Shown here: positions 1 through 21,246 of the stretch, in pieces | How positions within the stretch are numbered: position 1 is the stretch's first letter | How the letters are laid out: each line of letters begins with the position of its first letter | Virus record (IMG/VR): IMGVR_UViG_2534681772_000016 | Span: 1-21,246 of that record | Strand: one strand, 5' to 3' | DNA length: 21,246 nucleotides | From: a virus | Taxonomy: Duplodnaviria > Heunggongvirae > Uroviricota > Caudoviricetes | Notes under the pieces: generated by a model | Seen by the model: only the letters and a program-made list of their open reading frames with translations | What the model was told of the DNA's origin: nothing | Databases searched by the model: none | Program-made: the position numbers and the translations under genes

Positions 1-261
1 GAAGCCGGATTACTGGCATCAACAGGAAGTACAGGCGACTCGTATGACAACGCGATGGCGGAGAGCATCAATGGTCTTTACAAAGCGGAGGTAATACACC
101 GTAAGAGCTGGAAAAACCGTGCAGAAGTGGAACTGGCCACACTCACGTGGGTGGACTGGTATAACAATCGACGATTGCTGGAAAGGCTGGGCCATACTCC
201 TCCGGCAGAAGCAGAAAAAGCTTATTATGCTTCCATCGGAAACGATGATCTGGCAGCCTGA
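1..261 (+). CDS. IS3-family transposase OrfB (DDE integrase domain), C-terminal fragment
   Basis: The in-frame translation ...[80 protein letters not shown] matches the C-terminus of the OrfB encoded at 17406-18296. It is truncated by the window edge. Confidence 0.9.
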   Translation, partial: EAGLLASTGSTGDSYDNAMAESINGLYKAEVIHRKSWKNRAEVELATLTWVDWYNNRRLLERLGHTPPAEAEKAYYASIGNDDLAA

Positions 262-303
262 GTTCACAGATAAAACACTCTCCAGGAAACCCGGGGCGGT
301 TCA
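1..303 (+). mobile_element. IS629-like (IS3 family) insertion sequence, 3'-terminal 303 bp only; the element continues beyond the window start
   Basis: Positions 1-303 align with the last 303 bp of the complete IS copy at 18036-18338, with about 7 mismatches. The terminal inverted repeat ends in ...cccggggcggttca at 303, after which the sequence diverges from the other copy. Confidence 0.9.
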
Positions 304-659
304 GCTTGATTAGGATGTCTTTCCATCAGTCCGCCACCACAAAGAATCTTTTTTTGCCATAAGGCAGGAGGTTCATCTTTCAGTGGCTGCCAGTGTTATT
401 TCCCCACTTACTGGCTTGGGTTGTTTCGCTGTACTGCCGTAACTGGTTACCCAGAATAAATTCCGGTTTCATTATCAAGCCCACCAGTAGATAGGCTTTG
501 TAATGAACTGGCTCTTATCTCAACGCAGCCCCTTACCGCGCGCCAGATGCTCAATATCAAGCATCAGCAATGAGATGTTTAATCTGGATTCACTCCAGAA
601 GTGATCACCACCCTGTCTACAGAGCCAGATGTGAAGGATGATGAGTAAAATTATCGCTA

Positions 660-2878: not shown

Positions 2879-3539
2879 GCGCCTTCTCCCTGTACCTGAA
2901 TCAATGTGAGGTTTCCGCAGAACACTGCGCCGGTATCGATATACATCTGGTTGGCAAACTTGAGTGGTTTCACTGCTGGCGTATGACCAAAGATGAACAT
3001 GTCCGCGCCTTTGATTTCTTTCACGATCCCGTCTTGTGAGTTGCTGATTCGTTCGCGATTCCAGATTACCTGCTGATGATCAACTGGCTTTCCGAACTCG
3101 TATTCGTCACAAGGATAATCGGCGTGGCAGATGACATATTTTTTCCTTTACTCACCAGTTCGATTATTAACGGAAGTTCATCTGCTTTATGGGCAAGAGC
3201 TTTAGCCAGAATTTCTTTGTCGTAATCGAGATTAAAGAACCAGCCACCGCCATTAAGCAGCCAGTGATTAACGTTTCCACGCTCTGATAAGCCATCAATC
3301 ATCATTTGCTCATGGTTTCCACGTACAGCTCTGAACCAGGGGAATGTGATTAATTCCATACATTCGACGTTCTCTGTACCGCGATCAACCAAATCGCCAA
3401 CCGAGATAAGCAGGTCTTTTTTGGTGTCGAATCCTATCGCCTCCAGTTTTTTCATCAGGTTCGTGTAGCATCCGTGCAGATCGCCAACTACCCAAATATT
3501 TCGGTATTTGCTGCCATCAATTCTTTCGTAATAGCGCAT
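2869..3539 (-). pseudogene. ninI: NinI-like Ser/Thr protein phosphatase (calcineurin-like metallophosphatase), frameshifted
   Basis: The N-terminal frame [28 protein letters not shown]...[19 protein letters not shown] matches lambda NinI. The C-terminal part [11 protein letters not shown]...[33 protein letters not shown] is in another frame. The break is at a T6 run (plus strand 3137-3142). Confidence 0.8.
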
Positions 3540-3723
3540 CTCTTTCACTCCATCCGCGATGAACCATAAGAACGTCGTTGACGATGGCGTGCATTTTCCC
3601 GTCTTTATCATCAACGTATTTTCTGACCGTGCCGCGACTACATTTCAGTCTGCGTGCTACTTCTGTCTGGTTTCCGTATGCTTCAACGAGCATGTCTGGA
3701 ATGGTTTTTACTGAGAACGTCAT
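3517..3723 (-). CDS. ninH: NinH
   Basis: The 68-aa product [39 protein letters not shown]... matches lambda NinH as recalled. Confidence 0.9.
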
Positions 3724-4331
3724 GCGGCCTCACTTCTGCTATTTCGCAGGTCTTTGAGTTTCTGCTGATACTCCGCCTTGATCGCCTTGCACTCTTCGAC
3801 AGTCCAGCGATGGCGGTTATGGTTTGATTCGATTTCGTCTACTGCTTCCTGCCCGATGCGATTAATCAGTTCGACGCGATACGGAACGAGATTTCCGCTT
3901 TTGTGCTGGTTGCACACCACGCATTGCTTGTGAATATTGCGTTCATCAAATCGGAGTTGAGGTGCCGCAGCAGTTGTCCGGTAATGTCCGGCATCCCACT
4001 GAGCAGACGTGAGCGTTCCGCACGAGATACATGGTAAGTCGCGGTCTCTTTCTCTGATGAAGGCGTTTACGGCTTGTTGGGCTTGTTTAATCCAGTAACT
4101 GCGGGGCTTTAAGGCGAGTTTTCGAATCTTAAGTTTATCTTTCTGTTTCTGCTCCTCTCGTCGTCGTTTCTTCTCTGCTGCCTTTTCCGCTTTTTCGCGT
4201 TCTTTGCTTCGTCGTTCGAGTGCTATCTTGGTTCCACACTCTGGAGAGCACCACCACTGATTGGCGAATGCAGGGTGAAACCATTCCCGACATTCATCGT
4301 TTTTACATCGTCTTCGCGCTGGTTTAGCCAT
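3720..4331 (-). CDS. ninG: NinG (Rap-family recombination-associated endonuclease)
   Basis: The 203-aa product [35 protein letters not shown]... has the Cys-rich pattern and length of lambda NinG. Confidence 0.9.
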
Positions 4332-4494
4332 CGTCTTCTTCCTCGTGCATCGAGCTATTCGGATCGCTCATCAGTTCTGCGCAGCAGTGCTCACACACGT
4401 GAACTTCCAGCACATGCAGCTTCTGACCGCAGTTAGCGCACGTTAAAGCTCGCTCGACGCTTTCTTGTTCGTAACTTCGATTTGGGTCAATCAC
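4324..4494 (-). CDS. ninF: NinF (GTG start)
   Basis: The 56-aa translation (V)[55 protein letters not shown] matches lambda NinF. It is shorter than the 60-aa cutoff of the ORF track. Confidence 0.8.
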
Positions 4495-4673
4495 CTTGTT
4501 TTCCTCGCACGTTCTCTAAGCCACCGGATATCCCACAGGTGAGCCGTGTAGTTGAAGGTTTTTACGTCAGATTCTTTTGGGATTGGCTTGCGTTTATTTC
4601 TGGAGCGTTTCGTTGGAAGGTATTTGCAGTTTTCACAGATGATGTCGGTGATACTTCGTCGCTGTCGTCTCAT
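4491..4673 (-). CDS. ninE: NinE
   Basis: The internal Met start gives [52 protein letters not shown]..., which matches lambda NinE (60 aa). Confidence 0.85.
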
Positions 4674-5200
4674 GCCGCCCTCCTGACGCGCTGCCCGATT
4701 GCCATCAATGCCGCTTTGGATACAGTAGTAAACATCCGTCGAGGACTGATGAACGGTCGCCAAATCAGCAGCATGGAGCCTTTGCTGTTTCCCTTCTTCT
4801 CCAGCCCTGTCGATGGTTCGATAAAATTAATCCGTCCATCAGTGATAATGCGAACTTCGTCGACACTCTCCAGAGCCTTGCTGAACCATCCGACTGACAT
4901 ATCCTCTGGCACAAGCATCACTACCGTCTGTCGCTGTTGTATACACTGCTCAGCGGCTTTTTCCACCCACGGCCTGATATTGCTGTACGGTGGGTTATTC
5001 CAGATTGCACCGTGGCTTACCCACTCAGAATTGAGCGCGTCGTCGGCCTCAGTTAGCCAGTGAGCACACAGAGCATTTTTGTCGCTCGCTGCCGAATCCA
5101 GCCAGAATCCAAACTCAATATCCAGTGCATCAAAAAGCCAAAGCGGCGTTTGCCAGCAGTCTCTAACTTCTTTTGGTGTTTCTGATTTATGCTTAATCAT
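4670..5200 (-). CDS. Phage Dam-like DNA N6-adenine methyltransferase
   Basis: The product contains [17 protein letters not shown] and NPPYS (the D/N-PP-Y catalytic motif). Its ATG overlaps the ninB stop (ATGA). It occupies the lambda ninC/ninD position. Confidence 0.7.
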
Positions 5201-5649
5201 GCAGCCTTTCCTTTTCGTTGTGACCATTCATACTCTCGCCGGGAGTCATCACTCCACCGCACGTTGCGCTCTGAGCCGAACCAGAACATGATTTCGATAA
5301 GCTCAGTCATGCTGGCCTTTCGCATTTTGCTGGTACGCACACCAAGCATGACAACGCCACCATCGATACCAGGAACACTTCGTTGCTCCAGTTTTTTGGT
5401 CTTAAGCCACAGGGCAGTGAACAGGTCTTTCCAGTCTTCCGGTGCCAGCCGTTGACCATGCCATAGCACCTGACGCGAAACATCGTTCAGCATCGGCCAC
5501 ATACGGTCATTCTGAGCTTTGCTGCGTTTGGGTTCTCTAACGTGGACTTCATGAGGTGACTTGTCGTCGATCGGAAGTGAGAGTATTGCGTCTATGGCGT
5601 TGTTTCTGATTGCTTCGTTGCGAAGCATGTATATTTGCTTCATTGTCAC
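5197..5649 (-). CDS. ninB: NinB (Orf-family recombination mediator)
   Basis: The 150-aa product has ..DVSRQVLWHGQRL..EDWKDLFTA..FGSERNVRWSDD.., matching the lambda NinB pattern. Confidence 0.8.
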   Translation of the reverse strand: MTMKQIYMLRNEAIRNNAIDAILSLPIDDKSPHEVHVREPKRSKAQNDRMWPMLNDVSRQVLWHGQRLAPEDWKDLFTALWLKTKKLEQRSVPGIDGGVVMLGVRTSKMRKASMTELIEIMFWFGSERNVRWSDDSRREYEWSQRKGKAA

Positions 5650-6147: not shown

Positions 6148-6915
6148 TTAATACTCCGTCACGTTTTCCTGTCGCCACGCCTCGTCATATTCCGACTTCG
6201 GCATATTGGCGATGTAGCTATATGGCGATCCTGATTCAAGTTGCAGGAACTGGTGCGATTGCTCGTCAAGGAACAACGGGACACCACCTTCCCAACCTTC
6301 GCCGTTACGTTGTTTTTCAAGCATCAAAACAGATGCCGGAGATGCCAGTAGCTGTTCGTCCTTCTCTGACATCTTTTCACCACTCTGAACTCTCTGTAAC
6401 GCTCTCTCGCGAGCCTTGTTACGCCAGATGATGAAAAGATTGTCTGTCAGGTCTGTTATCGCTCCAGAGCCTTTTACGTCCATTTTCCCGGTTGGTTTTT
6501 CTTCGCTGTCTCCTTTTCGCGAGTGAGTAACGAGAATGACGTGGGAGTTTGTTTTGTTTTTGAAGTCGCAAATCGAGTCAACAAACGCCTTCTGCCCGTT
6601 ATAGTCATCGTCGCCTATGCCACATTTCATCAGGCTGTCGATGATGAATAACTGGATCCCGTATCGGCGGCGAGCGTAGTCGAATATTTCGATCAGCCTG
6701 TCGGCTTTCGCCGTTCCGGTCAGACCAAACACCCAAAGTCTCTCGTCATAAAATTTAAATGCAGAGTCAATTTCCAGCACTGGCGGCATCTTGCAGCACG
6801 TCGCCTGACGGGTAAGTCGCTTAAGGAGAATGCCTGGCTTCAGCTCAAGTGACGCGATGCAGGTCTTCACACCCTGACGCATTGCCTCAAGTGCCATATG
6901 CCCGACAACCTCGGT
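6148..6915 (-). CDS. Replicative primase-helicase, C-extein: RecA-like helicase core of the T7 gp4/DnaB type
   Basis: After the intein terminal HN the product reads TEVVGHMALEAMRQ... It has a Walker B-like IQLFIIDSLMK and the motifs HVILVTHSRK and GSGAITDLTDNLFIIWR. Confidence 0.7.
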   Translation of the reverse strand, partial: TEVVGHMALEAMRQGVKTCIASLELKPGILLKRLTRQATCCKMPPVLEIDSAFKFYDERLWVFGLTGTAKADRLIEIFDYARRRYGIQLFIIDSLMKCGIGDDDYNGQKAFVDSICDFKNKTNSHVILVTHSRKGDSEEKPTGKMDVKGSGAITDLTDNLFIIWRNKARERALQRVQSGEKMSEKDEQLLASPASVLMLEKQRNGEGWEGGVPLFLDEQSHQFLQLESGSPYSYIANMPKSEYDEAWRQENVTEY

Positions 6916-7937
6916 GTTATGCGTTGCCACATATCCTCTGGTTACATACAGGTGGCGAGGGTGATCGACCATGATACACAAGCATTCTGCATTGCCGATT
7001 TTTTCAACATTCCTGACGAATACCCCACACCCCTCGAATCGATGCGCAGTTAATCTGCCATTGAGTCGTGGTGAACGGATGGCCTCCCTGATTTCCCTTG
7101 TCAGTCGTATCCTTGCCTCATATGAATCCATCCCATGCCGCTTATCGCCCTTGTATGTGTATGTCACGCCAGTTTTAACTCGCGTCCGGCATGAACCGCC
7201 GAGTGAGTTAACCAGTTGAACAACCCCATTACGCAGTTCTTCACTTGCTGAGGAAAAACAAGCGTTCCATCCTTCTCGACATAACCATCCGTTTCAAGCA
7301 GACCACACAGCATTCCTATACGCGTTGATTTGTTTGCGGAAAAAAACACACGAGGGATGAATTTGTTTTTTGCTGTGCACCCCATTAGTCCATAAACTCG
7401 CAGGGTCTCCATGAGTGGATTTACCTGACCACGCGCCGTTGATATCAGCCAGTCCTTACCATCTCCAGAGAAGTTGTAATCAGGCAGTTCAGCCTTCATA
7501 CGCTCGATCATGTATGGCTCGACGTTTGAAAACTTCACGCTCCCATTGCTAAGACTACCATCCCCGAGAAGGGAGCCGATAACCCATGCTAATGGCTCTG
7601 AGTGGTCGCCAAAGTCACCAGTTATTTCGGGTATCCTGACGCCATTTTTGTGCCTCTTCGTTTCACTCAACCGTTTCAGCTCGAAGGTGTCTATCACGCG
7701 GCGCTTCTCGCCTTTCGTGAATCCACGACTAGTGACCTCCCATAGGTGATCGCCTGCGCAATCAACATAACGACCATCTTCAAATGTGACTCGGTAAACA
7801 TCTCTAACACCCTGCGGGAATATCCCGGTGACAGTTGACGGATTGCCGTCTACTGATGCCACCTGATCGCCAATTTTTACATCCCCGTGAGTAGTCCATT
7901 CACCATTAGCGAGCAGAATTGGTTCATCAAGTGGACA
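6916..7937 (-). other. Intein (Hint domain with embedded LAGLIDADG homing-endonuclease motifs) inserted in the helicase P-loop; reading frame broken at an A5/T5 run (plus strand 7254-7258)
   Basis: N-terminal block CPLDEPILLANGEW..IGDQVASVDG..VYRVTFEDGRYVDCAGDHLWEV. Two LAGLIDADG motifs: LAWVIGSLLGDGSL and IGMLCGLLETDGYV. C-terminal block, in the other frame, CLCIMVDHPRHLYVTRGYVATHN followed by T. The extein-only product restores GHGK(A)T. Confidence 0.7.
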
Positions 7938-9053
7938 GGCTTTTCCGTGACCGTTCACACCATTGACCAGCGTCAACTCTGCCTCACGGAACTGGAATTT
8001 ATCTGCCAGAGATTCCCACGGTGGATTAAACAGATACTGCTGCTTGCCGTAGAAAGCGTTGATAGTGTCCTGGTAAAACTCTCGCGCACTGTAGAGTTCT
8101 TCAGGATCGAAGTAGGATGCCGTGCCGATGTACTGCCAGATTTCATCCTCGGTAACACCGTTCATCAGGCATTCGTTGATGTCTTTGTACGGCAGAGTAA
8201 CAAGACGGCAACGATGTTCACCGAGTCGGCTTGCGATTTCCCTTGCGGCTTCACGACCAACATCATCAACGTCCATCGAGATGAATATTTCCTCAAACCT
8301 GTCGAGGTTGTGATACTCAAACTCAATCCACTGTTGCTTAGCGCCTTTCCCGCCACCAAACGGCACGGATAACGCCGAGATGCCGTATTGCGCATAGCTC
8401 ATACAATCAATTTCGCCTTCGCAAAGTACAACCGCCCTCACGCCAGCGTCCAGAGCCTGCCATCCGAACAGACAAGGTTCGCAATCACCTTCTGCCATAA
8501 TGACTTTCTTCCCGTCCGGGCGCTCAGTGCTGATTCGCTTGACCTGCAACAACTCACCATCGCGTTTGTACGGAAGCACCAGTGCATCAAGTTCTCGTTC
8601 TCCATTCCACACCTTGCCGCTGACAACCTCGTAGCGCTTTACGACTTCTGGCGATATGCCACGCGATTGCAGGTACTCAAGATGGGATTCTGTTCTGGTA
8701 ACGTAGCGGGCGATTTTCTTGCGGTCAGGTCTGGAGAATTTCTTCTCACGTTTGGCATCGAAATGGTGATCGTCATCCTTGATTCCGAGAAAGGCTTTCG
8801 CTTCCTGCATAGCCTGATGCAGGTTAATTCCACGACATGCCATCCACAAATCAAGCATGTCACCGCCGTCTCCCTCAGCGAAATCAGCCCATTTTTTCTT
8901 GCCGCTAAGGTTGACCTTAAGGCTGTTTCCCTTGTCACCGTTGACGTTACCGGCAACCCACTCATGCCCCTCTTTCTTGCCGTTTGGCAACAGGTGCGGA
9001 GCCACCCTGTCAACCTGCGCCCAAAGCAGGTCGCTAAGTTCACTTGGCGTCAT
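7938..9053 (-). CDS. Replicative primase-helicase, N-extein: toprim primase domain plus the start of the helicase up to the Walker A GVNGHGK
   Basis: The product contains the toprim signatures VVLCEGEIDCMSYAQYG and FISMDVDDVGREAA and ends in ..LTLVNGVNGHGKA before the intein. A GAGGGA RBS precedes the ATG at 9053. Confidence 0.75.
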
Positions 9054-17028: not shown

Positions 17029-17082
17029 TGAACCGCCCCGGGAATCCTGGAGACTAAACTCCCTGAGAAAGAGGTAAACAGG

Positions 17083-17409
17083 ATGACTAAAAATACTCGT
17101 TTTTCCCCCGAAGTCCGTCAGAGGGCGATTCGTATGGTTCTGGAAAGTCAGGGCGAATATGACTCACAGTGGGCGGCAATTTGTTCCATTGCCCCAAAGA
17201 TTGACTGTACACCGGAGACTCTGCGTGTCTGGGTACGCCAGCATGAGCGGGATACCGGAGGCGGTGATGGCGGGCTCACCACCGCTGAACGTCAGCGTCT
17301 GAAAGAGCTGGAACGTGAAAATCGTGAACTGCGCCGCAGTAACGATATCCTTCGCCAGGCTTCCGCTTATTTTGCGAAGGCGGAGTTCGACCGCCTCTGG
17401 AAAAAGTGA
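17083..17409 (+). CDS. IS3-family transposase OrfA (HTH)
   Basis: The 108-aa product [40 protein letters not shown]... has a leucine-zipper-like C-terminus and matches IS629/IS1203-type OrfA as recalled. Confidence 0.9.
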
Positions 17410-18296
17410 TGCCACTGCTGGATAAGCTGCGTAAGCTGTACGGGGTCGGACCGGTATGCAGTGAACTACATATTGCCCCGTCAACGTATTACCACTGTCA
17501 GCAACAGCGACATCATCCTGATAAACGCAGTGCCCGTGCGCAGCGCGATGACTGGCTGAAGAAAGAGATACTGCGCGTATACGATGGGAATCATCAGGTA
17601 TACGGTGTGCGTAAAGTCTGGCGTCAGTTGTTACGGGAAGGAATCAGGGTAGCCAGATGTACAGTGGCGCGCCTCATGGCGGTTATGGGACTTGCCGGTG
17701 TTCTCCGGGGTAAAAAGGTCCGCACTACCGTCAGCCGGAAAGCCGTTGCCGCAGGCGACCGCGTAAACCGTCAGTTTGTGGCAGAACGTCCTGACCAGTT
17801 GTGGGTGGCTGATTTTACTTACGTCAGCACATGGCAGGGGGTCGTCTATGTGGCGTTCATCATTGATGTGTTTGCCGGATACATCGTGGGGTGGCGGGTC
17901 TCATCGTCTATGGAAACGACATTCGTGCTGGATGCTCTGGAGCAGGCGTTATGGGCCCGTCGACCGTCCGGCACAGTCCATCACAGTGATAAAGGTTCTC
18001 AGTATGTATCGCTGGCCTACACACAGCGGCTTAAGGAAGCCGGATTACTGGCATCAACAGGAAGTACTGGTGACTCGTATGACAACGCGATGGCGGAGAG
18101 CATCAATGGCCTTTACAAAGCGGAGGTAATACACCGTAAGAGCTGGAAAAACCGGACAGAAGTGGAGCTGGCCACACTCACGTGGGTGGACTGGTATAAC
18201 AATCGACGATTGCTGGGAAGGCTGGGCCATACTCCTCCGGCAGAAGCAGAAAAAGCTTATTATGCTTCCATCGGAAACGATGATCTGGCAGCCTGA
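17406..18296 (+). CDS. IS3-family transposase OrfB (DDE domain), normally made as an OrfAB fusion by -1 frameshifting
   Basis: The 296-aa product has ..WVADFTYV.. and ..HHSDKGSQY.. and ..[15 protein letters not shown].. (the DDE triad context). It overlaps orfA in the -1 frame at an A-rich site. Confidence 0.9.
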
Positions 18297-18341
18297 GTTC
18301 ACAGATAAAACACTCTCCAGGAAACCCGGGGCGGTTCATCC

Positions 18342-18699: not shown

Positions 18700-18764
18700 T
18701 TTATTTATTCATATATGAAAACAATGTAACCAATATTCGATTTGAAGAACTGAAAGAACACCAA

Positions 18765-18787
18765 GCCGCCTGATGGCGGTTTTTTAT
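18765..18787 (+). terminator. Intrinsic terminator
   Basis: The hairpin gccgcc-tgat-ggcggt is followed by ttttttatt. Confidence 0.55.
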
Positions 18788-18799
18788 TGGAGACAAGAA

Positions 18800-19144
18800 A
18801 TGTCAGATTTGGCTATGAAGGTTTTGAAATGGCAATCGACTGGCGATGTTGGCATCAGTAGCGCAACTCTTGCCTCAATCGCATGTGGACTGAAAAAGAA
18901 TATCTATGGTCATCACTTCGGCGCTCCACATGACGCAGCCGATTTCCGGCGATGCGTTGCACTTGTTGAGCAGATTCCAGAAATCAGAGATTCATTCGAC
19001 AAGGTTGCAAAGCGCGTTCCGGCATTCAAAGGCATCCTCAACGAATGGGATTCTCTCGTTGCTCTGTTGAAGTCTGAAATGAAGATACACGGAAACAAAG
19101 CACCAGAGACTTACAGAAGAATCAGCGAGCTACGCAAGGACTAA
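18800..19144 (+). CDS. Hypothetical protein (114 aa)
   Basis: The ORF MSDLAMKVLKWQSTGDVGISSATLASIACGLKKNIYGHHFGAPHDAADFRR... has a GGAGA RBS. The upstream ATG at 18773 lies inside the terminator and was not used. Confidence 0.5.
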   Translation: MSDLAMKVLKWQSTGDVGISSATLASIACGLKKNIYGHHFGAPHDAADFRRCVALVEQIPEIRDSFDKVAKRVPAFKGILNEWDSLVALLKSEMKIHGNKAPETYRRISELRKD

Positions 19145-19268
19145 CCACAGTCTCACACTCGATGAGGCCTGTTCATTTCTCAAGATATCCAGACCTACCA
19201 TTGCTGCATCAATGCGGCTTTTTATTGCCTGATTTGCAGGTTCGATTCCCTATTCGGAGATAGCACTC

Positions 19269-19469
19269 ATGCAACACGAACTACAACCTGATTCACTGGT
19301 TGATTTGAAATTCATCATGGCTGATACTGGCTTCGGTAAGACCTTCATCTATGACCGGATTAAGTCCGGCGACCTGCCAAAAGCCAAAGTTATCCACGGA
19401 CGAGCAAGATGGTTATATCGTGACCATTGTGAATTCAAAAATAAGCTCTTAAGCCGCGCCAATGGGTAA
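19269..19469 (+). CDS. torI: AlpA/Xis-family excisionase (TorI-like recombination directionality factor)
   Basis: The 66-aa product MQHELQPDSLVDLKFIMADTGFGKTFIYDRIKSGDLPKAKVIHGRARWLYRDHCEF... matches the winged-helix excisionase pattern and TorI of the KplE1 prophage as recalled. It lies adjacent to the att core. Confidence 0.7.
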   Translation: MQHELQPDSLVDLKFIMADTGFGKTFIYDRIKSGDLPKAKVIHGRARWLYRDHCEFKNKLLSRANG

Positions 19470-19542
19470 AATAGCGGGTAAAATATTTCTCACATCTAAA
19501 AAACACCATTCCAATCAATCCCCTGCCGCTTCAAGTAGATGT

Positions 19543-19557
19543 CTGCAGGGGACACCA
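19543..19557 (+). other. Prophage attachment-site core (attR-type), identical to the 3' end of tRNA-Arg (argW)
   Basis: ctgcaggggacacca equals the acceptor-stem 3' strand plus CCA of argW as recalled. The 5' part of the tRNA is absent, so this is a displaced partial copy marking the prophage-chromosome junction. Confidence 0.6.
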
Positions 19558-19998
19558 GATACCCTTCAAACGAAATCTACCTTCACCCCGTAAAAGATGG
19601 GTTTGGCAGCACACTTGCCTTATATCTACTCATTTTTACTGCAACAGGTTGAAATCTCAGCACTGTCAGAAAGCGCTGATGACTAAACAGCCCTGAGCCG
19701 GGCGATGTAACCATCACACAGAATCCTGATAGCGAAATATGGCGTGACTCGATACTTCACTCCGCAATGCATTCCTTGATGAATTCGCAGGACCGTGATA
19801 CACGGGACAGGTCACTGAATGACGACAATGTCCTGGAAACCAGCGAACCGCGCATCTGAAGTACATTTGAGCGACTGTACCAGAACATGAATGAGGCGTT
19901 TGGATTAGGCGATTATTAGCAGGGCTAAGCATTTTACTATTATTATTTTCCGGTTGAGGGATATAGAGCTATCGACAACAACCGGAAAAAGTTTACGT

Positions 19999-21246
19999 CT
20001 ATATTGCTGAAGGTACAGGCGTTTCCATAACTATTTGCTCGCGTTTTTTACTCAAGAAGAAAATGCCAAATAGCAACATCAGGCAGACAATACCCGAAAT
20101 TGCGAAGAAAACTGTCTGGTAGCCTGCGTGGTCAAAGAGTATCCCAGTCGGCGTTGAAAGCAGCACAATCCCAAGCGAACTGGCAATTTGAAAACCAATC
20201 AGAAAGATCGTCGACGACAGGCGCTTATCAAAGTTTGCCACGCTGTATTTGAAGACGGATATGACACAAAGTGGAACCTCAATGGCATGTAACAACTTCA
20301 CTAATGAAATAATCCAGGGGTTAACGAACAGCGCGCAGGAAAGGATACGCAACGCCATAATCACAACTCCGATAAGTAATGCATTTTTTGGCCCTACCCG
20401 ATTCACAAAGAAAGGAATAATCGCCATGCACAGCGCTTCGAGTACCACCTGGAATGAGTTGAGATAACCATACAGGCGCGTTCCTACATCGTGTGATTCG
20501 AATAAACCTGCATAAAAGACAGGAAAAAGTTGTTGATCAAAAATGTTATAGAAAGACCACGTCCCCACAATAAATATGACGAAAACCCAGAAGTTTCGAT
20601 CCTTGAAAACTGCGATAAAATCCTCTTTTTTTACCCCTCCCGCATCTGCCGCTACGCACTGGTGATCCTTATCTTTAAAACGCATGTTGATCATCATAAA
20701 TACAGCGCCAAATAGCGAGACCAACCAGAAGTTGATATGGGGACTGATACTAAAAAATATGCCGGCAAAGAACGCGCCAATAGCATAGCCAAAAGATCCC
20801 CAGGCGCGCGCTGTTCCATATTCGAAATGAAAATTTCGCGCCATTTTTTCGGTGAAGCTATCAAGCAAACCGCATCCCGCCAGATACCCCAAGCCAAAAA
20901 ATAGCGCCCCCAGAATTAGACCTACAGAAAAATTGCTTTGCAGTAACGGTTCATAAACGTAAATCATAAACGGTCCGGTCAAGACCAGGATGAAACTCAT
21001 ACACCAGATGAGCGGTTTCTTCAGACCGAGTTTATCCTGAACGATGCCGTAGAACATCATAAATAGAATGCTGGTAAACTGGTTGACCGAATAAAGTGTA
21101 CCTAATTCCGTCCCTGTCAACCCTAGATGTCCTTTCAGCCAAATAGCGTATAACGACCACCACAGCGACCAGGAAATAAAAAAGAGAAATGAGTAACTGG
21201 ATGCAAAACGATAGTACGCATTTCTGAATGGAATATTCAGTGCCAT
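19999..21246 (-). CDS. cscB: Sucrose permease CscB-like (LacY-family oligosaccharide:H+ symporter, MFS); chromosomal flank
   Basis: The 415-aa product MALNIPFRNAYYRFASSYSFLFFISWSLWWSLYAIWLKGH... has 12 predicted hydrophobic segments and matches CscB as recalled. Its start codon is the last codon of the window. Confidence 0.85.
   Translation of the reverse strand: MALNIPFRNAYYRFASSYSFLFFISWSLWWSLYAIWLKGHLGLTGTELGTLYSVNQFTSILFMMFYGIVQDKLGLKKPLIWCMSFILVLTGPFMIYVYEPLLQSNFSVGLILGALFFGLGYLAGCGLLDSFTEKMARNFHFEYGTARAWGSFGYAIGAFFAGIFFSISPHINFWLVSLFGAVFMMINMRFKDKDHQCVAADAGGVKKEDFIAVFKDRNFWVFVIFIVGTWSFYNIFDQQLFPVFYAGLFESHDVGTRLYGYLNSFQVVLEALCMAIIPFFVNRVGPKNALLIGVVIMALRILSCALFVNPWIISLVKLLHAIEVPLCVISVFKYSVANFDKRLSSTIFLIGFQIASSLGIVLLSTPTGILFDHAGYQTVFFAISGIVCLMLLFGIFFLSKKREQIVMETPVPSAI

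Follow-up and report, generated by a model that had tools for sequence, protein, structure and literature searches.

In the KplE1, HK620, Sf6 and Kapi1 systems the attP site lies between the excisionase gene (xis) and the integrase gene (int), and integration therefore leaves the two genes at opposite ends of the prophage (PMC2951348, PMC8787464). In lambda, by contrast, attP lies outside the int-xis pair, so that both genes come to reside at one prophage end under shared pL/pI control (PMC2951348, PMC3509656). The two types nonetheless have in common a heterobivalent tyrosine integrase, a small winged-helix recombination directionality factor (RDF), integration host factor (IHF) and both arm-type and core-type sites (PMC2951348). 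They differ again in where the RDF acts: the target of lambda Xis is the P arm (attR), that of TorI, the RDF of KplE1, the P' arm (attL) (PMC2951348, PMC3509656). Five TorI sites of the form GTTCG, GTCCG or GATCG are found in the P' arm, overlapping the PintS promoter (PMC2951348). PintS overlaps attL and is repressed by both IntS and TorI (PMC2951348), the latter acting through the GTTCG-type sites I4 and I5 (PMC2951348 section 8). The KplE1 model makes excision dependent mainly on the production of TorI (PMC2951348), and the torI promoter, PtorI, has been called uncharacterised (PMC2951348, Figure 1 legend). Here, we describe the torI end of a prophage in the IMG/VR virus record IMGVR_UViG_2534681772_000016 (Caudoviricetes), positions 1 to 21,246, a 21,246-nucleotide stretch to which we refer as the window. 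Positions 19214-19557 of the window are almost certainly the attR of a lambdoid prophage that carries a recombination module of the KplE1/HK620/Sf6 type and resides in the tRNA-Arg(CCU) gene argW. As such, the junction is already known, being an instance of a recombination module dissected in 2005-2012.

Among the closest known systems is KplE1 (CPS-53), a cryptic prophage of E. coli K-12, which has an identical TorI and the same core as the window. In both, the prophage ends at attR with torI as its last gene, and in KplE1 intS stands next to argW at attL. The differences lie in the prophage body and in the flank. KplE1 is a 10.2-kb remnant that lacks a repressor, its attR abuts dsdC, and its 16-nt core ends in T (PMC2951348), whereas the prophage is a lambdoid element of about 46 kb in the nearest relative of the window, and in the window the host flank is formed by the csc locus and the identity extends over 15 nt, position 19558 being G. 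HK620, Sf6, Kapi1 and N7, P22-like members of Lederbergvirus that integrate into argW, share with the window the promoter region, xis, hkaB, the left arm of attP and the core. Only the recombination module is common to them, however, and upstream of 19214 the divergence from HK620 and Sf6 marks a mosaic boundary. To judge from E. coli strain TW10590, the nearest relative, the prophage encodes a baseplate, DUF3383-type tail proteins and other morphogenesis proteins unlike those of P22-like podoviruses.

The assignment of the junction rests on sequence identities, the exact point of junction, the empty site and the far prophage end of a near-identical strain, all of which could be read directly. 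The window contains a single copy of the attR core, CTGCAGGGGACACCA, an exact match on the + strand at 19543-19557, for which the chance expectation is 0.04 even with up to two mismatches. When argW is read from strain TW10590 (gtcctcttagttaaatggatataacgagcccctcctaagggctaattgcaggttcgattcctgcaggggacacca), this 15-mer corresponds to bases 61-75, i.e. to the last 15 bases of the tRNA gene, just as had been stated in an earlier interpretation of the window made from its letters alone (the sequence-only reading). The same reading had noted that the rest of the tRNA is missing, and this too is correct. ARAGORN detected neither a tRNA nor a tmRNA in the window, a search of Rfam over 18700-20100 returned no family at E<=1, and the contiguous 30-nt 3' half of argW is absent from the window even if three mismatches are allowed. 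The tRNA content of the window thus amounts to two non-adjacent segments, the core and a box upstream of torI that is discussed below. A chance origin of these two fragments could be ruled out, since both are exact and unique while shuffled sequences are expected to give at most 0.08 matches with two mismatches allowed.

On the phage side, HK620, Sf6, HK633, N7, Kapi1 and other phages are 97-98% identical to window positions 19214-19557, and the match ends at the last base of the core. The gene maps of HK620 and Sf6 read xis (hkaC) - hkaB - attP core - int. On the host side, an artificial query composed of argW and window positions 19558-19998 gave an unbroken match (100% coverage, 99.8% identity) in each of the 25 records listed, all prophage-free. 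In one such empty site, that of strain RM10042, the annotated order is yfdC, tRNA-Arg, 441 bp and cscB. Because argW and the spacer are contiguous in empty sites, 19558-19998 represents the native 441-bp argW-cscB intergenic spacer, which is host DNA, and the boundary between phage and host falls at 19557/19558. Comparison with an empty argW-cscB locus had been proposed as a check in the sequence-only reading, and the RM10042 attB fits, with CTGCAGGGGACACCA as the shared identity. In a four-way alignment of attR (window), attB (RM10042), attL (TW10590) and attP (HK620/Sf6), the arms are exchanged reciprocally around CTGCAGGGGACACCA: attR is made up of the left arm of attP and the right flank of attB, and attL of argW and the right arm of attP. 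The crossover lies within the core. For the csc-type attB the shared identity is 15 nt long, the 16th base (19558) being G in attB and attR versus T in attP and attL. The region 19100-20100 is 100% identical to that of TW10590, and of 5426 complete E. coli genomes, 372 share the torI-attR-cscB arrangement. Two phage records, those of Escherichia phages vB_EcoP-683R2 and 611R6, give matches that continue past 19557. We considered whether phage DNA might itself continue beyond the core, and rejected this on the strength of the 683R2 record (ON470594.1), the one of the two that was inspected, which at 3286-5387 holds the host cscB and a fructokinase gene. The 'complete phage genome' of vB_EcoP-683R2 is a prophage-derived sequence that includes a bacterial flank.

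If the window ends in attR, the integrase gene is expected elsewhere. A tblastn search with IntS of TW10590 over the whole window produced nothing better than E=0.79, and the sole 'integrase core' (rve) domain in the window belongs to an IS3-family transposase (17406-18296). Between the core and cscB there are only open reading frames (ORFs) of up to 72 residues, none with a Pfam match. The earlier statement that no integrase gene lies between the excisionase gene and cscB is therefore upheld. In TW10590 the other end of the prophage, at a distance of about 46 kb, has intS beside yfdC and an intact argW. Together with the published maps of KplE1, HK620, Sf6 and Kapi1, this supports the KplE1-like layout that had been suspected, with xis and int at opposite ends. 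The accompanying expectation, that argW and an integrase would be found at the other end of the prophage, holds for the near-identical TW10590 (intS-argW-yfdC); for the source prophage itself it is inferred only.

Taken together with the published systems, these data point to the following course of events. The free phage carries the genes in the order xis(torI) - attP - int. IntS recombined the attP core of 15-16 bp with its identical counterpart at the 3' end of argW, and the module was thereby split. At attL, outside the window, intS presumably stayed beside the regenerated argW, and the expected arrangement is yfdC-argW-intS with CTGCAGGGGACACCATTTATCAG in direct orientation with 19543-19557. 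At attR, torI stayed 73 nt from the displaced copy of the core, which now abuts the native argW-cscB spacer. Excision would need TorI, supplied by read-through or induction past the terminator at 19203-19223, as well as IHF and IntS, the latter constitutively low and autorepressed.

Several observations weigh against this picture of a complete and excisable prophage. The only complete genome to reach at least 80% coverage in a search with the whole window is TW10590, and the intS gene and intact attL of the source prophage are deduced from that strain. The two prophages are 99.9% identical over 88% of the window, and they differ in the positions of their insertion sequences (IS), TW10590 also lacking a 1-kb insertion. 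Moreover, the window displays signs of prophage decay, namely two IS3-family insertions (1-304 and 17029-18338) and a frameshifted intein in the primase-helicase gene, so this prophage copy may be unable to finish the lytic cycle even if it is excisable. The same signs of decay would also suit an orphan remnant, in which the remainder of the module has been deleted and a torI-attR stub is all that persists; such a remnant would have no matching attL or intS and could not be excised. A window that covers one prophage end would be compatible with such a stub as well. However, torI is preceded by some 19.5 kb of contiguous lambdoid DNA with early, replication, nin and lysis genes, the 99.9%-identical nearest relative has a complete 46-kb prophage with both intS and argW, and neither torI nor the putative arm-site repeats nor the core is damaged. 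We therefore regard an orphan stub as highly improbable and retain the interpretation of 19214-19557 as the attR of an integrated lambdoid prophage.

The excisionase gene torI (also known as xis or hkaC) occupies positions 19269-19469 on the + strand and encodes a 66-residue winged-helix RDF. All 66 of its 66 residues are identical to those of PDB entry 1Z4H ('Tor inhibition protein', TorI of E. coli K-12; E=6.6e-43), and RefSeq labels the TW10590 counterpart torI, so the earlier description of the product as a TorI-like excisionase was accurate. The adjacency of the gene to the core was also seen correctly, although the distance between them is 73 nt rather than 74 bp. A Shine-Dalgarno sequence, GGAG, can be read at 19256-19259 (+) and is conserved in the alignment of lineages. 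Directly upstream of the torI control region, a terminator scan revealed a hairpin that resembles an intrinsic terminator, GCTGCATCAATGCGGC followed by a T-run (19203-19223, +). Most relatives have a hairpin and a T-run at the equivalent place before torI, with sequences that differ among them, and RNAalifold recovers this upstream stem as a consensus stem with compensatory changes. The module homologous to HK620 and Sf6 starts inside the terminator, at 19214.

For the arms of the att sites, the assignment of proteins to particular sites follows the literature, as does the control of excision described above. A repeat finder identified two direct repeats, GGGTAAAATA, at 19464-19473 and 19476-19485 (+), 12 bp apart and overlapping the torI stop codon. 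The equivalent stretch of HK620 is annotated as 'repeat_region attP', and the repeats carry TAAA, a motif common to the arm-type sites of IntS on attL (motif from PMC2951348 section 8). We infer that the pair represents putative arm-type sites of the P arm for the integrase. The left arm of attP also shows a conserved inverted repeat, CCCCTGC(ATA)-N12-(TAT)GCAGGGG, at 19513-19552 of the window and at equivalent positions of loci L006-L008 and L094-L103; it may be a candidate core-type (C) site for the integrase. In relatives from outside E. coli the spacer of this inverted repeat contains TTCGATG, a degenerate T-loop located 3 nt from TGCAGGGG as in argW, whereas E. coli phages have GTAGATG instead.

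On the opposite arm, five TorI sites are found at +7, +27, +70, +80 and +90 from the core in the attL of TW10590, in HK620 and in Sf6, and at +9, +29, +72, +82 and +92 in three more distant phages. The fourth site of the TW10590 attL reads GTTCA. In the P' arm of TW10590 the sites I1 and I2 are spaced by 20 bp, and I3, I4 and I5 by 10 bp. Counting on the same attL (argW at 27889-27963 of locus L002), one finds 31 bp between site I1 and the GTTCG that precedes it in the argW T-loop. Judged by this spacing, the argW T-loop shares approximately the helical phase of the mapped TorI sites and could represent an unrecognised sixth one.

The second argW fragment is a T-loop-like box upstream of torI, TTGCAGGTTCGATTCC, at 19234-19249 (+), an exact and unique 16-mer equal to argW bases 46-61. 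The sequence-only reading had recognised it as a fragment of the argW T-arm, and in this it was right; the position it gave, 19241-19256, was not, as the box lies 7 nt farther to the left and begins 3 nt outside the start of the region that the reading had delimited. Its suggestion that the fragment might be a footprint of the attP arm is not supported as far as excision is concerned, and a part in integration (attP) is conceivable. The 135-bp attR substrate that is efficient in vitro starts at primer CTCTTAAGCCGCGCCAATGG (PMC3509656 section 3.6), which corresponds to window position 19447, about 200 bp downstream of the box end at 19249. Since the box is outside an attR that suffices in vitro, it is not a required arm site for excision. 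Neither is it included in the attP annotation of HK620. The K-12-type locus (L090) has the same box upstream of torI. The box is part of the conserved module but lies beyond the minimal attR.

How strongly the box is conserved became apparent from related xis loci of Serratia, Citrobacter, Pantoea, Edwardsiella, Erwinia phages and uncultivated viral contigs. A scan of viral contigs with TorI gave only 100%-identical copies, and the diversity was obtained from a genome scan with an alignment query and from queries with divergent homologues. When 13 lineages are aligned, a single block upstream of the xis ATG proves invariant, GTTCGATT.C (19240-19249 in the window), and both of its flanks are scrambled. 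The block starts 21-23 nt before the ATG, with the exception of Serratia (29 nt), and the Erwinia-phage group has the box twice in tandem, at a distance of 16 bp. As to the xis DNA itself, its identity to that of the window is 70-83% in the eight lineages with a box for which it was measured. The same tRNA-Arg-type core is the target in all related loci whose att core could be recognised. An enterobacterial-type torI module also turned up in two short contigs of metagenome-assembled genomes assigned to non-enterobacterial taxa, JAEWEJ010000341.1 (L094, 'Actinomycetes bacterium') and JBKEAL010000209.1 (L109, 'Parachlamydiaceae'), where the TorI identity is 85% and 92%, respectively, the former contig having an argW-like core as well. 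These two modules probably reflect binning contamination.

It is tempting to speculate that the box is a cis-regulatory operator in the torI promoter or leader. Inside the invariant block there is GTTCG (19240-19244), the pentamer of published TorI sites that was changed to CAAGC to abolish TorI binding in attL (PMC2951348 section 8). By this reasoning, which we put forward tentatively, the operator would be addressed by TorI through GTTCG and/or by the core-binding domain of IntS, the latter being a candidate because the box copies the T-loop of attB. In a related and equally tentative sense, the box might be an attB mimic, as it reproduces the argW T-loop that in attB lies immediately left of the core and at the same time carries the TorI pentamer. 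A TorI site at its own control region is plausible given that TorI represses PintS via sites of the GTTCG type. RDFs that double as transcriptional regulators are familiar from P4 (Vis), P2 (Cox) and 186 (Apl). Against an operator speaks the distribution of the box, which is missing in Klebsiella phage Chronis (where xis overlaps the upstream gene), Erwinia phage 49, Dryocola, Tatumella, Rouxiella and some Pantoea. The first four of these have the same P'-arm sites even without the box, which is therefore dispensable for recombination. Among the papers that could be searched, none addresses the box upstream of torI or reports binding of TorI or IntS to it.

Another explanation would be that the box has no function and is an evolutionary relic, either one half of a longer, tRNA-homologous ancestral attP that was split by the insertion of xis or the leftover of an earlier integration. 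This idea has its appeal, for the argW segment copied by the box (bases 46-61) exactly abuts that of the core (61-75), and in the E. coli lineage the copy is perfect (16/16). However, in most relatives from outside E. coli attP keeps a degenerate T-loop of its own, TTCGAT, which is separated from TGCAGGGG by 3 nt, the spacing of the tRNA. The splitting of a single tRNA copy by insertion of xis could accordingly be ruled out, since attP retains this T-loop beside the core. Furthermore, the box is invariant in a setting where the xis DNA is only 70-83% identical and the flanks are scrambled, and it has been duplicated in tandem in some lineages. Invariance and tandem copies argue for selection rather than drift, and we consider a relic unlikely.

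The annotations of phage genomes offer a different view of the same spot. In HK620 and Sf6 a putative pI ('integration') promoter is annotated there, together with a cII site, and by the HK620 coordinates these correspond to 19224-19262 and 19225-19237 of the window. Accordingly, the box might be nothing but the spacer within a lambda-style pI promoter activated by cII, with TTGC-N5-TTGC straddling the -35 region. The labels themselves ('phage integration' promoter plus cII site in HK620, pI in Sf6) favour such a promoter, but the details fit poorly. The repeats are spaced by N5, compared with N6 in lambda, the first TTGC is replaced by TTAC or CTTG in many E. coli relatives, and in other genera neither TTGC is kept even though the supposed spacer is invariant. 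In addition, a scan with the sigma-70 consensus at the box and over 19224-19262 found no promoter and no pair of hexamers. On this evidence a cII-dependent promoter seems rather improbable.

We also considered the box at the RNA level. Its 3' half (AUUCC or AUUUCC) could act as an anti-Shine-Dalgarno sequence and throttle TorI translation on read-through transcripts. In minimum free energy or centroid folds of single sequences, the box or its immediate flank indeed pairs with GGAG in seven of eight lineages (Edwardsiella being the exception), and GATTTCC variants allow a 6-bp match, AUUUCC:GGAGAU. Nonetheless, the pairing register varies among the lineages, and RNAalifold run on the torI leader yields only the upstream terminator stem, with no conserved helix at the box. 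The single-sequence folds are unexceptional (z-scores -1.9 to +1.2), both partners are conserved for other reasons, which makes covariation impossible to assess, and the invariant 5' half, GTTCGA, is left unexplained. Translational throttling thus appears about as doubtful as the cII promoter, and the putative operator, tentative as it is, remains the reading that we prefer for the box.

Beyond the junction, the host part of the window consists of the spacer described above and cscB, a complete sucrose permease gene at 19999-21246 on the - strand. Its product of 415 residues belongs to the LacY family (Pfam LacY_symp, E=1.3e-193), in agreement with the earlier identification of cscB at this place. 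In TW10590, where RefSeq labels cscB 'oligosaccharide MFS transporter', the gene is followed by cscK, cscA and cscR. Just beyond the cscB stop codon, within the host DNA, there is a perfect 11-bp inverted repeat, TTTTCCGGTTG/CAACCGGAAAA (19946-19956 and 19979-19989), which is probably the cscB terminator.

The remaining part of the prophage has two features worth recording. The primase-helicase gene (Toprim + AAA_25; - strand, 9053..6148) is interrupted in its Walker-A loop by an intein-like insertion of about 1025 nt (window 6913-7940). Whereas in TW10590 NGVNGHGK is directly followed by TEVV, in the window GHGK and TEVV are separated by ACPLDEP...LLGDGS...LLETDGYV...GYVATHN. The insertion has endonuclease motifs of the LAGLIDADG type and a weak match to Pfam Hom_end_hint. 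A frameshift inside the endonuclease part splits the primase-helicase gene into two ORFs, 7164-9053 and 6148-7167. The insertion is present in 79 complete E. coli genomes, and among those listed the stretch is one base longer and falls inside a single annotated gene. Since the matching stretches elsewhere are one base longer, the copy in the window has either a 1-nt deletion or a sequencing error. The other feature is the IS3-family element, which is present in two copies, one partial at the left edge of the window (1-304) and one complete (17029-18338; orfA 17083-17409, orfB 17406-18296). A DUF551 gene is disrupted near its 3' end by the complete copy. In TW10590 the same element is found elsewhere in the otherwise 99.9%-identical prophage.

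As for the significance of these observations, the junction itself matters little, as it is one more case of a well-described module. For annotation it is of value in that it sets the exact edge of the prophage at 19557/19558 and assigns the csc genes for sucrose utilisation to the host, not to the cargo of the phage. The box is a different matter. The control of TorI synthesis is an acknowledged gap of the KplE1 model, and a conserved element about 20 nt upstream of the ATG provides a modest lead. If the box does serve as an operator, the amount of recombination proteins would feed back on how much excision factor is made, which would either stabilise lysogeny or amount to autoregulation, and a new regulatory layer would be added to a well-studied module.

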